Positions 3,929 through 42,031 of a DNA stretch of 64,000 nt are shown here, piece by piece. The notes beneath the pieces were generated by a model. The model made no database searches and was not told the DNA's origin. It saw only the letters and a program-made list of their open reading frames with translations. The translations under genes and the position numbers were made by a program. The stretch comes from Candidatus Woesearchaeota archaeon (GTDB lineage: Archaea > Nanobdellota > Nanobdellia > Woesearchaeales > GW2011-AR9). The DNA lies in the NCBI GenBank assembly GCA_018676855.1, contig JABHDY010000003.1, positions 240,838 to 304,837 on the forward strand, given 5' to 3'. Within the stretch, counting starts at the first letter, position 1. The number at the start of each line of letters is the position of its first letter.

Positions 3929-4585
3929 ATGTCCAGTTCACAATTAGAAAGGTTGTTACAAGGTCCAATAATACGTAAAGCAGAGTGCGGATTTTGCGAT
4001 TTTGGTCAGAAAAATATTGGAGATGAAGATGCAAGGGGAGCTATCATCATTCATCAAACGGGAAAAAATCCAGAAGTTGATTGGTATGCAACCTTACAAG
4101 ATACGGTAACGTCGGATCCAGAAACAGGATTTAGAATACTTCTTCTTCCTACGGGGCATGTACGAACTTTTGCTCAAATTGGAATGAGCAACAAAATGGT
4201 TGCTAAATATGGGGCGTCAATGGCAACCCTCAGCATTGCGATACAGAAGGTCCGTGCAGCAGAAGCTGAAAAACATGAAATGAAATACGTACCAATGGAA
4301 CGAATTGATGGTAAATGCTATGCAAACGGAAACTCACAAGCGCATGTGCACATTAAGTTTGATGAACCTTCTAAAGGATTGGCACAACCTTTTCCGGCCG
4401 ATACGGGCCCATGGACAAATAAAGATATGTTTTACCTTCGAAAAAATGGTTCTACAGAACTTACCCCTTATGTTGTCGCAGAACCTATTGAAAAACAAAG
4501 ACATTCACCTGAAAGAATGCAATTTCTTGCAGAACAATTAATTGAACAATGTGCAAGAACGTACATATTCTTAGAACGACTATAA
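3929..4585 (+). CDS. Divergent HIT-superfamily protein (paralog of 3241..3834)
   Basis: CGFC, LLLPTGHV, NGNSQAHVHIK; shares the W-x-AT-L, DPE and QP segments with its neighbour. Confidence 0.55.
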   Translation: MSSSQLERLLQGPIIRKAECGFCDFGQKNIGDEDARGAIIIHQTGKNPEVDWYATLQDTVTSDPETGFRILLLPTGHVRTFAQIGMSNKMVAKYGASMATLSIAIQKVRAAEAEKHEMKYVPMERIDGKCYANGNSQAHVHIKFDEPSKGLAQPFPADTGPWTNKDMFYLRKNGSTELTPYVVAEPIEKQRHSPERMQFLAEQLIEQCARTYIFLERL

Positions 4586-5659
4586 AAGTACTTTAATATA
4601 TTCTTTCTCTCTTCTATCATCCATGTAGGCATCAAAGTATCCAACAACAATCCTATAATAAACACTACCATCCTTACAATCAACTCGTTCTAGAACACCA
4701 CACGTTTGAATCTTCTCACCAGGATATGCCATCATGCAATAATCGCGTGAATAAAAAGCAACTTTTGTAATATCACCTGGAACAGAACCACTAACAACAC
4801 TAACATCTTTAATATCGTAACATCCTGGTCGTACAACAGAACTAAAATTGTCTGTAACAGTACCTTCAACAGTTACATTTCCTAATGATGTATATGTTTC
4901 CTCACCCCATTGAAACCACGTTTCTTCTTCCTTTTCTGCAGCAAAGATAACAAATAATCGTTCGTTAAAGAATCCTTCAGATTTCTTCCTGTTCATAAGG
5001 TAATAAAAGTCATCTTCAGAAAATGTATTGTACCTATTTCGTCGTTTATGAAATGAAATCCATTCGTCTTTAGTTTTCCATCGTAACAATTCGTGCTGTG
5101 CAGTTTCCAAATATTTCATTAATTTCCAGAAATTTTCCTTTCCGTACACAACAATGTTAATATCTGATATAGTTGGATTGTAATGGCCCATAAGTGTTGA
5201 ATATGTTATTCCTAAATCTTTAACACGTAACCCACTTTGAAGAAGGAACGTAGCAAATTTATGCACAAGTTTAAGATAATCGTCAAGTGATCCTTCAGGC
5301 ATACTAATCAATTCTGAGAAACCTTTTCGCGGATAATAAATTCGTTCAATATTATCTATTGGAACGGAAAAGAAAAGTCTATCATCAGTATGAACGGGAC
5401 TGTTTAAAACATATTGTGGATACTTAATCTTGAAATTGGTAAGATATTGTCTAAGTTTTTCTTTATCTGACCACATGTTAAGCCTATTCATTTTCTTTCC
5501 AGAAATGAACCTATATTGTAAGCCATCAGATTCAACTTTATCAGTAGGAATATATTTAGGTTTTACTAAGATAGAATTAAACGGATGTTCATTTCCATAT
5601 ACTTGACATTGTAACCCATCTTTGGTTGTTATGATGGATGATTCATAAAAATGTACCAT
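4580..5659 (-). CDS. Pol-beta-like nucleotidyltransferase-fold protein (archaeal predicted NTase); start reassigned to MVHFYES
   Basis: GITYSTLMG...SDINIVVYG; ATG at 5659 directly follows the stop of the upstream paralog; C-terminal OB-like GVLERV region. Confidence 0.7.
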   Translation of the reverse strand: MVHFYESSIITTKDGLQCQVYGNEHPFNSILVKPKYIPTDKVESDGLQYRFISGKKMNRLNMWSDKEKLRQYLTNFKIKYPQYVLNSPVHTDDRLFFSVPIDNIERIYYPRKGFSELISMPEGSLDDYLKLVHKFATFLLQSGLRVKDLGITYSTLMGHYNPTISDINIVVYGKENFWKLMKYLETAQHELLRWKTKDEWISFHKRRNRYNTFSEDDFYYLMNRKKSEGFFNERLFVIFAAEKEEETWFQWGEETYTSLGNVTVEGTVTDNFSSVVRPGCYDIKDVSVVSGSVPGDITKVAFYSRDYCMMAYPGEKIQTCGVLERVDCKDGSVYYRIVVGYFDAYMDDRREKEYIKVLL

Positions 5660-38327: not shown

Positions 38328-39098
38328 CTATTCAAGCAACGTATACTCAGAACTTAACGTTACATCGGACGTTTTTGCAAGGCCAATACCTAACTTGGTT
38401 AATTGGAACCTTTCAAGAATAACTTCTGATTCGTTCTCTATTGTGTAAATAACAAGTTCTACAGGTAAACCTGAATATGTATCAATAAACATCCGTTCAC
38501 TATTTTCTTCTTCGTTAATATATTCTACTACAATTGCGTCTCGACCTTCAACTTTTTTCCTATCAACGATCTCTGCATTGTACGGAACACGTTCAAGCAA
38601 TTTCAGTGGTGTTGATTCTAATTCCGTATAATTAATAGAATATGATTTTAAGTTATAATCGCAACTTAATCCAATTGAACATGAAGCTAACGCAGTTGTT
38701 CCATCATAGTACACTTCATTATAATACATATCTTCCGCAAACTTAAGATTATCAACAAACCGTATTTTTGTATTTCCGTCACGTACATAAAACGTGTATG
38801 TTGGTAACGGTTCTAACTTACCACGTTCTGATAAGAATCGTCCTACAAAGAAATATTTATAATTTGTTTGATCTTGTGCCTTTTGTATTAATCCTGTTAA
38901 TTCATTTTCTACTTGTGGTTCTGTAACAGGTTCTTCAACTTTTGGAACGTCCGTTACAACGGGTTCAATAACTTCTGGTTGTTGTTCTTCTTCAACGCAT
39001 AATGATTCATCCGTTACTATTGAACCATCTGGACATTCAATGTTTTGTGTACAACCTACTATTAATACAGTTAGTATAAGAAGATATAATAATTTCAT
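38328..39098 (-). CDS. Putative lipoprotein (LolA/DUF2092-like fold); start reassigned to MKLLYL
   Basis: IVGC lipobox, CPDG..C knot, Pro/Glu linker, [12 protein letters not shown]; TATA motif just upstream. Confidence 0.7.
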
Positions 39099-39114
39099 GT
39101 TAGTAAGGATATTG

Positions 39115-39131
39115 AGGTCGTATATAAATTT
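39115..39131 (-). promoter_or_regulatory. Duplicated TATA-containing promoter (copy 1)
   Basis: AGGTCGTATATAAATTT identical to 41775..41791; both lie 16-17 bp upstream of a lipoprotein ATG. Confidence 0.6.
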
Positions 39132-39149
39132 AATTGATTCTTTCAAATT

Positions 39150-39485
39150 TATTATTTGTATGTTAACTTTTATAGCAGTATCACTTTTTAGAACTCTAGA
39201 GAGCATAGCAACGCCTTGTTCTGTGAATGCAAATGGTAACTTTCTTCGGCCACCCTATCTTGATGTCACAGATTGTGATTTCAAGATTTTAACTTCTTCA
39301 TACGTTAACTGAAACATGAAATTCTTTGGAGATCTGTCCTTACTTCGTTTTACAGCCTGATTTAGAACTCGGGTCTCAACTTCATAAAGTTCAGCCAAAT
39401 CACTATCAATCATTACTTGAACTCCTCGAATGTCATAAATCTTGTCTTTGATAGACTCCCCTGACACTATCAATTCATTTTTCAT
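39150..39485 (-). pseudogene. ORF6N-domain DNA-binding protein pseudogene
   Basis: [27 protein letters not shown]...[27 protein letters not shown]; TAG at the normally Trp codon (39255-39257); C-terminus truncated. Confidence 0.8.
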
Positions 39486-39600: not shown

Positions 39601-39840
39601 TTATTCATCCGAACAATAGTCCGTATGTCGAATCATATCACAATGTCCACCATAATGAGTATAGTCATCATGTTCACTATAATCTGTATGATCTTTTCTT
39701 CTAAAGAATACAAAGCTTCCTTCATAATCGACAGTAGTAACTCTTTTTAGAATTCCTGACAAGACAGGGTTAGAAACTCTATCAACATCAATTTCTTCTG
39801 CTGTTAAATCACATAATCTTTTAAAATCTTTTGTAGCCAT
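39601..39840 (-). CDS. Putative RiPP precursor peptide with His-x-Asp repeat core
   Basis: 79 aa; GGTGG SD before ATG 39840; leader-like SNPVLSGILKRV; core RRKDHTDYSEHDDYTHYGGHCDMIRHTDYCSDE; directly downstream of a radical SAM gene. Confidence 0.7.
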   Translation of the reverse strand: MATKDFKRLCDLTAEEIDVDRVSNPVLSGILKRVTTVDYEGSFVFFRRKDHTDYSEHDDYTHYGGHCDMIRHTDYCSDE

Positions 39841-39853
39841 TTTTTTTCCACCT

Positions 39854-40951
39854 TTATTCATTTATTGCTCTATCTTTATCTAATTGTTGTATTACTTTTC
39901 TAGCAATGTGTTCATAAACTCTCTTATTTGAGGCACAACTTGGATCTTTTCCCATGATATCTCCTTCAAGATATGCTCCATGCATACAACCAGAATGACA
40001 AAGAAAGTTATAATCACATTGATTACATTCATCGTTCTTTTCATAACGTGAAGCTAATTCTACTCTTAACGGATGTTCTTGGATTTCTTGGAAGTCAGTA
40101 ATTTTATTAATATTTCCATAAGAAACATCAGGACCTGAGAAACGTGAACAGGGATATAAAGTACCGTCAGTTCCTATTGAAAGAAAACTATCTTGGCAAC
40201 TTTCTACCATATTACAAGAACTTCCACCTTTAGTAAAAAATGCTGAAACTAAAGAGTCCATATTTCCATAGTGAATTGTATGGCCTTGTTTCTGATCATA
40301 AAACCAACGATCAAATAAATGGCAAGTTGCCTGAGCTCTTTCAGTATCACTTAAGCTTAAATCATCAAATTGATCATTTGCATGACCACATTTTATCATT
40401 AAGTTAATTTTAAAATTTAATCCTTCTTCTTTAAAAAAGTCATAAATCTCGTCTAAAAATGGAAAGTTCTTTTTAGTAATTACTGCAATTACTCCTGGAG
40501 ATTTTCCTCTTTCTCTCATCATACCAATTGCTTTCATAGTAGCGTCGAAAGAAGATTTGCCTGAACGATAAGGTCTCGTAAGGTCGTGAAGTCTTTTCGG
40601 TCCATCAAGACTAAAACCTAAACCAAACCTTTCTTTGGTAAAAAAATCTGCTGATTCTGGAGTCAATAAAACACCGTTAGTTTGCATTCCATTACTAACT
40701 TTTACTGAGGCTCCAAATCTTTTTTGTAATTCAACAGCTTTTCTATAGAATTCTAGTTTTGCTGTTAATGGTTCAGCACCATGCCAAATATAACTTACTT
40801 CTTGAGCATCTCCAGTTGTTTGTAAAATCTTAATAGAATTTGTTAAAGTTTCTAAATCCATAACTTGTTTAGACTTATCACCCTCATAACAATAACTACA
40901 TCTTAAATTACAAGACTCAGAAACTTTCATTAAAACGTTTAATCTTTGCAT
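39854..40951 (-). CDS. Radical SAM/SPASM-domain peptide maturase
   Basis: CNLRCSYC, WHGAEP, QTNG, SLDGP..HD..R, SPASM C-x5-C...YPC...CxxC-x5-CxxxC...C. Confidence 0.9.
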   Translation of the reverse strand: MQRLNVLMKVSESCNLRCSYCYEGDKSKQVMDLETLTNSIKILQTTGDAQEVSYIWHGAEPLTAKLEFYRKAVELQKRFGASVKVSNGMQTNGVLLTPESADFFTKERFGLGFSLDGPKRLHDLTRPYRSGKSSFDATMKAIGMMRERGKSPGVIAVITKKNFPFLDEIYDFFKEEGLNFKINLMIKCGHANDQFDDLSLSDTERAQATCHLFDRWFYDQKQGHTIHYGNMDSLVSAFFTKGGSSCNMVESCQDSFLSIGTDGTLYPCSRFSGPDVSYGNINKITDFQEIQEHPLRVELASRYEKNDECNQCDYNFLCHSGCMHGAYLEGDIMGKDPSCASNKRVYEHIARKVIQQLDKDRAINE

Positions 40952-41027: not shown

Positions 41028-41759
41028 TTATTCTACTCTTTCAAACCTATCATCTAACACAACATCAGAATCCTTAACAGTATTAACAGTTAACCTATTA
41101 AAATTATATTTATGCGTAACAGTTTCACCATCAAAAGTAATTACTTCTACAGGTAAACCATAGAAACTGTCTATAGTCATACGTTTGTTGTTGTATTCAA
41201 TAATTGTCATTTTACGTCCATCTTGTGTACTTTCTCCAAACTTTTCTGCGTTTGAAGGTATATCTGAAAGTAAACTTAAGGGAGTAAATTCAGGTACATG
41301 ATCATTATATGGTAAAATGTATGCCTTACCATTATATCCACATCGTCCATCAGCTGGACAGAACCCTATTGTTTCTTCAGAATTATAATATATTTCATTA
41401 TAGAACGTATCTTCTGTAAGTAATATATTATCATCGTACACAATTTTCATTTGATTATTATTGATATATACGTCGTATGAAGGTACCGGTTCTAATTTTC
41501 CCCTATTTGATAATTCTGATCCCACAAAAGAATATTTGTAGTTATCTTGCTGTTGTCCTTTATTGATTAATTCTGTTATTTCTGAGTTTACTTCTGGTTC
41601 TTGTACTTGTGTTGGTGGTTGTACTTCTGGTTCTTGTTCCTGTGGACATTGTGTTTCGTCTTGAACTTCTGTACCGTCAGGGCACGTGAATGTTTCTGTT
41701 ATTGGTTGTGTACATCCTACAAGGAATAATATTGTTATCAAGATAATTGCGAGTTTCAT
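41028..41759 (-). CDS. Putative lipoprotein, paralog of 38328..39098; start reassigned to MKLAII
   Basis: LVGC lipobox, CPDG..C, NYKY.FVG..LS.RGKLEP.P, YNE.YY, ID.FYGLPVE shared with the paralog. Confidence 0.72.
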   Translation of the reverse strand: MKLAIILITILFLVGCTQPITETFTCPDGTEVQDETQCPQEQEPEVQPPTQVQEPEVNSEITELINKGQQQDNYKYSFVGSELSNRGKLEPVPSYDVYINNNQMKIVYDDNILLTEDTFYNEIYYNSEETIGFCPADGRCGYNGKAYILPYNDHVPEFTPLSLLSDIPSNAEKFGESTQDGRKMTIIEYNNKRMTIDSFYGLPVEVITFDGETVTHKYNFNRLTVNTVKDSDVVLDDRFERVE

Positions 41760-41774
41760 ATGATTGTTATGGTA

Positions 41775-41791
41775 AGGTCGTATATAAATTT
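41775..41791 (-). promoter_or_regulatory. Duplicated TATA-containing promoter (copy 2)
   Basis: Identical 17-mer to 39115..39131. Confidence 0.6.
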
Positions 41792-42031
41792 TATTAATCA
41801 GCCACACCCCACTGGACAACCACGCGTAAGGCTTAAATGTGCTGAATACCGGTACTTTTGATGTCACATGTTCGTTGTCCACAATGTTGGAACTCACAGT
41901 TTATAATTAAAAACACGTTAGTTAACATTAAATTTGTTTGTGACAACTGTTTCTTTACAATCATACTTAACCACTGGGACGGTATGTATAGGTACGCGCA
42001 AATCTTAGGTAAATTTAAATAAAATTATTCA

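Follow-up and report, generated by a model that had tools for sequence, protein, structure and literature searches.

Within a window of 64,000 nucleotides from Candidatus Woesearchaeota archaeon (contig JABHDY010000003.1, forward-strand positions 240,838 to 304,837; by the window we mean this whole stretch), we analysed a gene for a radical S-adenosylmethionine (rSAM) protein with a SPASM domain and, directly downstream of it on the minus strand, the gene for a small peptide, as a candidate maturase and precursor of a peptide that is made on ribosomes and modified after translation (RiPP). The rSAM gene ends with a TAA stop codon at 39854-39856, the ATG of the peptide lies at 39838-39840, and the 13-nt gap between the two genes holds the sequence AGGTGGA (Table 1). 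The coordinates thus confirm what the initial annotation of this DNA had described, an rSAM/SPASM gene followed 13 nt on by an open reading frame (ORF) of 79 amino acids (aa) with its own Shine-Dalgarno sequence. An alternative in-frame ATG at 39861 would give an 86-aa peptide, and we took the 79-aa start because the N-termini of the homologues, including the closest ones, align with it. The host had been read as a DPANN-type archaeon, which we accept; its genome has 944 kb in 4 contigs, is an estimated 92.8% complete and holds the precursor gene in a single copy.

The window peptide has a leader-like first half, with DVDRVSNPVLSGILKRV at residues 18-34, a basic RRK at residues 47-49, and a core that can be read in frame from H51 as the triplets HTD YSE HDD YTH YGG HCD MIR HTD YCS, with DE at the end. 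This core holds four H.D motifs and one Y.E motif, the former being HTD-Y (51-54), HDD-Y (57-60), HCD-M (66-69) and HTD-Y (72-75). Every feature that had been pointed out by eye, namely the leader-like half, the RRK, the four H-x-D motifs with Tyr after three of them and the two core Cys (Cys67 and Cys76), is present, and the leader has a third Cys, at position 10. For the window peptide alone, four H.D motifs compare with 0.88 expected (a count reached in 39 of 20000 shuffles) and three H.D[YWF] motifs with 0.16 expected (reached in 1 of 20000); across the peptide family the enrichment of H.D is far stronger than in this one peptide. Neither the window peptide nor nine relatives gave a meaningful match in Pfam or NCBIfam. 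An 86-aa gene call of the same peptide, P0001, lies on a 1.2-kb contig and has as its sole difference Gly for Val at residue 37 (79-aa numbering), between the leader and an F-x-F junction with the core.

The two genes were found together well beyond this genome. An rSAM search that was independent of the peptide covered 401 genomes of the class and returned matches at E<=1e-40 in 9 of them. Leaving out the window's own locus, 7 of the 8 class-level loci carry one to three precursor genes directly downstream and on the same strand (three at L174 and at L176, two at L178, one each at L175, L177, L179 and L180), while the eighth, at 30% identity, has no precursor gene. The peptides of these loci share a leader of the form ...EI.V..V.N..L..I...G.F.F and a tandem [His/Tyr]-x-[Asp/Glu] core. 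The closest homologues with a genomic context are those of L174 (56% identity) and L175 (53%), and their peptides align with the window peptide from the first residues; other rSAM homologues are known at 50-58% identity, and scans of sequence collections with an alignment of the enzyme (A1) gave, among the matches listed, no homologue above 42% identity. A first look at homologous loci had turned up small same-strand ORFs beside the rSAM gene, with a common N-terminal pattern and tails rich in His, Asp and Tyr, and a profile made from those ORFs had 22 matches among 11,770 small ORFs. In a FastTree tree with 196 rows, the window enzyme falls in a clade of 44 rows in which 11 of the 14 distinct loci carry the peptide; two of the other three have candidate peptides, judged by eye only. 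A further profile (alignment A3) matched in 19 of 179 loci, always on the rSAM strand, in 18 loci downstream and in one 4 bp upstream, and in the downstream cases the precursor nearest the rSAM starts at most 65 bp from the end of the rSAM match.

The presence of an adjacent peptide at 7 of 8 class-level loci and at 11 of 14 distinct loci of the clade bears out the view that the two genes are a precursor and its maturase. The system is not particular to DPANN archaea, since the family also occurs in records titled Kiritimatiellae (with the peptide) and Verrucomicrobiota and in many metagenome contigs. Generic predictions of rSAM-RiPP clusters in DPANN genomes exist (PMC12144867). The distribution of the cassette is sporadic, and its presence in both archaeal and bacterial records indicates that it moves between lineages. 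Besides the rSAM and the precursor, no gene is common to more than 5 of 20 related loci. Two records deserve mention in their own right. One titled uncultured Methanosarcinales (L014) is identical over 4.1 kb to L177 (G207), a genome assigned to the family of the window's own DPANN-type genome, and the taxonomy given in its title is probably wrong. In the other, P0112 (157 aa), the C-terminal part of a SPASM protein runs in frame into a precursor with the leader and a Y/H-x-D core, a possible fusion or a missed stop codon.

The extent of the peptide family became visible with a HMMER profile, which was needed because word-based searches found only the peptide itself when it was used alone and 6 proteins when the query was alignment A2, made of 16 of the 22 precursor ORFs. 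Against 1.84 billion representative sequences, the profile of these 16 members gave 186 matches at E<=1e-3, mostly of 60-120 aa. The motif counts that follow are from 150 of the 186 matches, of which 147 are 50-160 aa long and 144 carry the leader pattern. The family leader is approximately (E)I.G..(I/V)(D/E)...(I/V).N(P).L...(I/V)...R....F.F. In window numbering, F6, L9, I17, V22, N24, L27, I30 and L31 are its conserved positions (alignments A2 and A3), and N24, F43 and F45 are near-invariant across the peptide family.

In the 144 cores the strongest signals were at the spacing i, i+2. The motif [HYW].[DE] occurs 1236 times against 391 expected, H.D 387 times against 104 and Y.D 427 times against 122 (each about 3.5-fold), H.E 148 times against 60 and Y.E 215 times against 76, and in 500 shuffles none of these counts was reached. 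At least one [HYW].[DE] is present in 143 of the 144 cores; the median number in a core is 8, and there are up to 18. The residue after the motif is mostly Tyr (310) or His (277), so that the core consists of [His/Tyr]-x-[Asp/Glu] triplets arranged in tandem. The H-x-D repeat from which the initial annotation started is thus a conserved trait, but only as part of a broader one, a series of tandem [H/Y/(W)]-x-[D/E] triplets. Depleted in the cores are H.Y (34 against 77 expected), H.K, H.R, H.A and F.D. The Cys content of the cores bears on another possible chemistry, that of a thioether-forming maturase of the ranthipeptide or QhpD-like kind joining a core Cys to the Cβ of Asp. Cys67 and Cys76 are close to Asp in the window core, and PapB and QhpD, against which the window enzyme scores 141.7 bits (PapB, NF047865) and 129.9 bits, make Cys-Asp S-Cβ links (PMC11002830). 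We consider this chemistry very improbable because Cys is not conserved in the cores, 60 of the 144 having none and 56 having one only. Furthermore, the Cys-Asp spacings are about as frequent as expected (C...D 19 against 14.7, C..D 12 against 14.9, C.D 10 against 15.0), and the PapB score compares with a cut-off of 340 bits.

The enzyme matches Pfam Radical_SAM (PF04055) with 53.5 bits (cut-off 29.5) and SPASM (PF13186) with 26.6 bits (cut-off 21.5). Its CxxxCxxC motif is formed by C14, C18 and C21, and C246, C252, C268, C309, C312, C318, C322 and C339 are invariant in 23 homologues (alignment A1) and align with the Cys of the anaerobic sulfatase maturase (anSME) of known structure anSMEcpe (4K37). 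There is no N-terminal RiPP recognition element (RRE) domain. As triceptide maturases, the initial annotation had named XyeB, GrrM and FxsB among others; the best NCBIfam match is instead DynA (NF041298), with 303.8 bits and below its cut-off of 450, as compared with 78.7 bits for XyeB (cut-off 450), 130.3 for GrrM/OscB (310) and 102.6 for FxsB (370). Also below their cut-offs are the second-best family, the anaerobic sulfatase maturases of TIGR03942 (225.1 bits, cut-off 349.45), and TIGR04083 (189 bits, 300), YhhB (130.3 bits, 445) and AmcB (105.9 bits, 425). The enzyme is thus outside the characterised cyclophane-forming (3-CyFE) families XyeB, GrrM/OscB, FxsB, YhhB and AmcB. The nearest solved structures are anSMEcpe, with 138 bits over residues 4-353, and ChlB, with 81 bits.

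We placed the enzyme with a FastTree tree of 196 homologues, from which one rSAM row outside 280-500 aa had been dropped, and an IQ-TREE tree of 60 rows of our own choice. In both, the bona fide sulfatase maturases form a distant clade with a support of 100 (L081, one of them, scores 766 bits with PRK13745). The true DynA loci form a separate clade, likewise with a support of 100, and score 519 (L116), 590.5 (L019) and 480.4 bits (L022). The peptide at L116 is a dynobactin-family precursor (NF041295, 65.4 bits, cut-off 40), and the window peptide has no match to that family. In the IQ-TREE tree the window enzyme lies in a clade of nine rows that includes L174 and L175, with a support of 97. 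From the score below the cut-off and the separate clades it follows that the enzyme is DynA-like, and neither a DynA nor a sulfatase maturase; judged by sequence, it belongs to a clade without a name that is a neighbour of DynA.

Related rSAM groups have peptides of their own. In a sister subgroup of the rSAM (L096, L105, L106 and L109; support 99) another precursor type lies just downstream of the enzyme, with a leader like ILGH.V....LK.SLKD.L.KRGL and a strictly conserved C-terminus ...VYKYAFF, which is another RiPP type without a name. In a Bacteroidales clade (L023, L026, L027, L028, L101 and L104; support 100) the peptides are encoded 400-900 bp upstream of the rSAM and have at their C-termini a conserved series of Y-x-D and H-G-D motifs, ...YDDYNDCHGDYYDAE, and the peptides of L115 and L121 have HSD/HTE followed by YGD repeats; the peptides of this clade and of these two loci may be the published Y-x-D type. 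In a Citrobacter sp. record (L033), the rSAM match at 4001-5074 is a DynA-family gene with an internal stop, either a pseudogene or a sequencing error.

The nearness of anSMEcpe raises the question of a housekeeping role, in which the enzyme would be an anSME or some other SPASM protein with a housekeeping task, next to a small ORF that is either unrelated or an unmodified, His/Asp-rich metal-binding mini-protein. Such a role would accord with anSMEcpe being the nearest solved structure, with the missing RRE domain and with the fact that neither a peptidase nor an exporter is adjacent. The enzyme, on the other hand, falls short of the sulfatase maturase cut-off and stands in a clade separate from the anSME group. 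Moreover, no protein of the host's own genome, at the completeness given above, matches Pfam Sulfatase (PF00884) above its cut-off, the best sub-threshold match being the 20.5 bits of a 513-aa ORF at 831-2372 on the plus strand, in which we saw by eye no C/S-x-P-x-R motif, and hence no mark of a sulfatase that depends on formylglycine, and on which no family search was made. The peptides show no excess of the related motif [ST].P.R (4 against 2.4 expected), and both genes travel together across archaeal and bacterial records.

The residues that follow Cys268, the auxiliary cluster I (Aux-I) Cys, point the same way. In the sulfatase maturases positions 269 and 270 are D-H (each residue in 22 of 22 rows, with Arg in 0 of 22), and the Asp is presumably the catalytic base of anSME. 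The window enzyme has S269 and R270, so the C-D-H motif becomes C-S-R, and the pair is S/G-R throughout the clades with acidic motifs, Arg270 being present in 18 of 19, 25 of 25, 7 of 7 and 4 of 4 rows of four such groups. DynA has A-S at these positions (Arg in 0 of 5 rows). Lys181 occurs in 18 of 19 and 19 of 25 rows and is replaced by Asn in DynA and Gln in anSME. Given the clade placement, the missing C-D-H motif, the lack of a sulfatase and the joint travel of the two genes, we consider a housekeeping role most unlikely. The expectation that the enzyme would not group with the sulfatase maturases was therefore correct, both in the two trees and at this motif.

A model of the complex of the enzyme with three clusters, SAM and the peptide scored 0.86, as compared with 0.09 for the best of 3 controls, which also argues against a small ORF unrelated to the enzyme. 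Of 80 solved complexes 58 reach the mark for such models, as do 2 of 110 mismatched pairs, a calibration that is only rough here, as our own alignments were supplied and small molecules were included. At least 51% of the contacts recur between the model runs, and the predicted local distance difference test score (pLDDT) of the partner is at least 71. The best run places leader residues 1-35 on rSAM residues 346-365 (the C-terminal helix) and 235-249; in it, peptide residues 45-49 and 54-64, the latter covering YSE, HDD and YTH, touch the barrel at residues 55, 57, 88-90, 110-112, 152-155 and 179-183 and also contact residues 268-270. The contacts of lowest error include the conserved leader residues F6, L9, N24, L27 and I30, and the regions of Lys181 (179-181) and Arg270 (268-270) are both within the modelled interface. 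The model thus supports, short of proof, a docking of the leader on the C-terminal helix, with the core in the barrel.

We therefore favour, with moderate confidence, the reading of the two genes as a minimal RiPP cassette that makes cross-links of the triceptide type, from an aromatic residue to the Cβ of an acidic residue. Triceptide synthases join an aromatic ring to the Cβ of the residue two positions on, as OscB does between Trp C7 and the Cβ of Asn/Asp (PMC11002830). In the mechanism that we propose, the leader of the 79-aa precursor would bind at the RRE-less enzyme's C-terminal helix and bridging region, the core of [His/Tyr]-x-[Asp/Glu] triplets would thread into the barrel, and the carboxylate of the substrate would be held by the conserved basic residues Arg270 and Lys181. 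By analogy with the nearest characterised relatives, the enzyme would abstract a hydrogen from the Cβ of the acidic third residue, and a bond would form between this carbon and the ring, imidazole or phenol, of the residue two positions upstream, with a change of -2 Da per ring formed. The bond could be C-C, as in triceptides, or C-N, as in the His link of DynA, and the window peptide could bear up to about five rings. Which bond is made, how many rings form, what becomes of the leader and what the product does are inferred; the His, Asp, Glu and Tyr of the core suggest metal binding, and a metal-binding or antibiotic role is at present a guess.

Several observations weigh against this reading. 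The enzyme reaches the cut-off of no named family, so that its chemistry is transferred by analogy only, and the nearest named relative, DynA, links His in H-x-Y, a motif that is depleted here. The nine-row clade sits within a broad and weakly resolved radiation with backbone supports of 82-88, and YxdB, a Tyr-x-Asp cross-linker, was compared with the window enzyme through its published description. The groups in which residues 269/270 and 181 were related to core motifs were defined by us, partly from the peptides, and their clades are related and not independent; moreover, the enzymes of the YKYAFF subgroup carry G-R at 269/270 though their core is not an acidic repeat. The window locus has neither a peptidase nor an exporter (Pfam, 29.5-53.4 kb), and a possible C39-like peptidase partner elsewhere in the genome, a 199-aa ORF 47 kb away with a 17-bit match (E 1.6e-3), was not counted. 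Finally, the middle residue of the triplet (X2) is strongly Ser/Thr, with H[ST][DE] found 294 times against 25 expected, a bias that a link from the aromatic residue to the third residue (X3) does not explain and that could mean chemistry at X2.

This last point leads to the alternative of a genuine RiPP pair with another chemistry and no aromatic-Cβ ring, for instance oxidation of the X2 Ser/Thr (to an aldehyde or ketone, by a dehydrogenation like that of anSME), epimerisation at Cα, a link by an ether or ester, or a decarboxylative reaction of Asp/Glu. The X2 of H.[DE] is Thr in 167 and Ser in 127 of 535 motifs, the sulfatase maturases are the second-best family and provide the nearest structure, and the strictly acidic X3 could reflect carboxylate chemistry instead of recognition. 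At the same time, X2 varies, with HDD and HCD in the window peptide and R, K, N, D, H and others in the family, and the Asp that follows the Aux-I Cys of all sulfatase-maturase rows is Ser or Gly in the window family. As in the motifs of triceptides, it is the first and third residues of the triplet that hold the conserved information, and the closest named relative, DynA, is a cross-linker. On balance we think another chemistry unlikely, though it is the main alternative to aromatic-Cβ cross-links.

The cyclophane/triceptide class of RiPPs and the Tyr-x-Asp link are already known, and the His-x-Asp link, which the core sequences would imply, was not found in print. A literature search likewise did not find this enzyme clade or its leader, and published networks may already list the family. 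A bolder and more speculative proposal, which we put forward as a rather doubtful one, is that the clade makes undescribed bonds between the His imidazole and the Cβ of Asp/Glu, together with Tyr-Asp links, in long tandem arrays, giving a rigid ladder of small rings that consists almost wholly of metal-ligand side chains. In genome-reduced DPANN archaea that retain the enzyme and the peptide alone, without an exporter or peptidase, such a product might act in the cell or on its surface, as a metal-binding or redox peptide or in a host-symbiont role, and not as a secreted antibiotic.

The comparison defines a large family of RiPP precursors without a name, recognisable by its conserved leader, by the F-x-F junction and by [H/Y]-x-[D/E] triplets in tandem, and connects it with a clade of its own among the radical SAM enzymes that resemble DynA. 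It also offers a hypothesis of specificity, in which Arg270 and Lys181 would select an acidic X3. With 365 aa and 79 aa, the system is compact for expression; the His-Asp link, if true, would be a new ring type for the cyclophane toolbox, and the retention of the cassette in sub-megabase DPANN genomes would be one of few concrete leads on their peptide natural products.

Candidate processing genes were found at some of the related loci. The absence of an adjacent protease or transporter, noted from the outset, holds for the window locus, where a Pfam scan of the ORFs between 29.5 and 53.4 kb found no protease or transporter domains, but not for the family, since in 5 of the 20 related loci a C39-like Cys/His peptidase of 205-240 aa directly follows the precursors (Table 1). 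This is a lower bound, because many of the 20 loci are short. These proteins have invariant R-C and G-H motifs and match Pfam families of the peptidase C39 type, and they are candidate leader peptidases, which fits the leader removal typical of RiPPs. Cleavage of the double-glycine kind at the F-x-F junction was considered and dropped; although a Gly is often close by, the loci with the peptidase show no consistent pattern. No exporter recurs among the 20 related loci. In 5 of the 20 loci the cassette adjoins the gene for a charged 494-564-aa protein that seems to be rich in coiled coil and has no Pfam match. Its homologue in the window's own genome (E 2e-76; G000:C4:4111-5517) stands beside other conserved genes without an assigned function and, as it is on another contig, this protein was not counted as a partner.

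Table 1. Positions of the cassette and its parts in the window, and of genes adjoining the cassette at related loci (locus:positions)
Feature	Position	Strand	Basis
Radical SAM/SPASM gene (putative peptide maturase), 365 aa	39854..40951	minus	Pfam and NCBIfam matches
Putative precursor peptide gene, 79 aa and stop codon	39601..39840	minus	ORF, profile family
Shine-Dalgarno-like AGGTGGA, 6-12 nt 5' of the precursor ATG	39847..39853	minus	sequence reading
Leader, residues 1-35	39736..39840	minus	alignments A2 and A3, complex model
Leader/core junction, F43-V-F45-F then R47-R48-K49	39694..39714	minus	alignment A3
Core, residues 50-79	39604..39693	minus	motif counts
C39-like peptidase genes at related loci	L015:5601-6269, L016:5170-5892, L025:5427-6044, L032:5371-5991, L107:1660-2298		
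Genes for the 494-564-aa protein at related loci	L025:2244-3935(-), L032:2351-3922(-), L179:4-1431(-), L094:5161-6642(+), L176:3654-4041(+)		

The cassette lies in a region of about 25 kb in which Pfam matches include glycosyltransferases, a polysaccharide deacetylase, sugar dehydrogenases, an aminotransferase and methyltransferases. The G+C content across the region is flat, at about 0.31-0.33, so a recent transfer has left no compositional sign. On both sides of the cassette are paralogues of about 290 aa (38328-39206 and 41028-41897, both on the minus strand; 40% identity, E 1e-61), each with a hydrophobic N-terminus ending in VGCTQ, which resembles a lipoprotein signal, and after it a linker that is acidic and rich in Pro/Glu; neither has a match above threshold in Pfam or PHROGs. 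The arrangement looks like an insertion of the cassette between two tandem paralogues. Next downstream of the precursor gene, at 39255-39485 on the minus strand, is a 76-aa ORF with an ORF6N domain (80.6 bits); its match to a phage anti-repressor family of 268 positions is confined to positions 13-75, and it is therefore a truncated remnant of a mobile element. In the same-genus genome G001 (83% complete), a close rSAM homologue was not found with the window query, and the homologue of the flanking lipoprotein-like gene sits at a contig end. The stretch occurs in marine and seawater metagenome runs, and contigs from four seawater runs, of four studies, had 0 differing letters in long pieces and thus gave no variants; short pieces from other organisms also fitted the stretch weakly.

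Among known systems, anSMEcpe (PDB 4K36-4K39) shares with the window enzyme the Cys pattern for three [4Fe-4S] clusters and the lack of an RRE, and differs from it in clade, and in having C-D-H where the window enzyme has C-S-R; no sulfatase was found above the Pfam cut-off in the window's own genome. PapB and QhpD show that SPASM enzymes can abstract the Cβ hydrogen of Asp in repeated short motifs (PMC11002830), and differ from the window system in that the cores of the window family have no conserved Cys and the scores are low. YxdB, which links Tyr C3 to the Cβ of Asp (Sugiyama et al., JACS 2022, cited in PMC11002830), has in common with the window system an aromatic residue at position 1, Asp at position 3 and an rSAM/SPASM enzyme with an adjacent precursor, whereas His, and not Tyr, dominates position 1 in the window peptide. 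His at position 1 of a three-residue motif is found in HaaB, HtkB and YhhB, with links to the Cβ of Ala, Lys or Arg; HaaB and YhhB make His C2-Cβ links (PMC11002830) and HtkB joins His C2 to the Cβ of Lys (PMC11499958). One charged residue sets the X3 preference there, D214 in HtkB, which selects Lys, and H204 in HaaB (PMC11499958), and the window Arg270/Lys181 would be the mirror image of D214, for Asp/Glu. These enzymes are, however, distant in sequence (YhhB 130.3 bits against a cut-off of 445), and the window X3 is acidic, with H.K, H.R and H.A depleted. The closest likeness is to DynA, the best-scoring named family and the neighbouring clade in both trees, which is also an RRE-less rSAM/SPASM enzyme of about 360 aa with its precursor gene directly downstream. 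DynA too links a His side chain to a Cβ two positions on, making one C-C link and one His N-to-Cβ link (PMC11002830). The window enzyme differs from it in its score (303.8 bits, against 480-590 at true DynA loci), in its leader and a precursor without a match to NF041295, and in the S/G-R at 269/270 and K at 181 of its family, where DynA has A-S and N; and whereas DynA acts on one W-x-N and one H-x-Y, the window family carries H/Y-x-D/E in many tandem copies.

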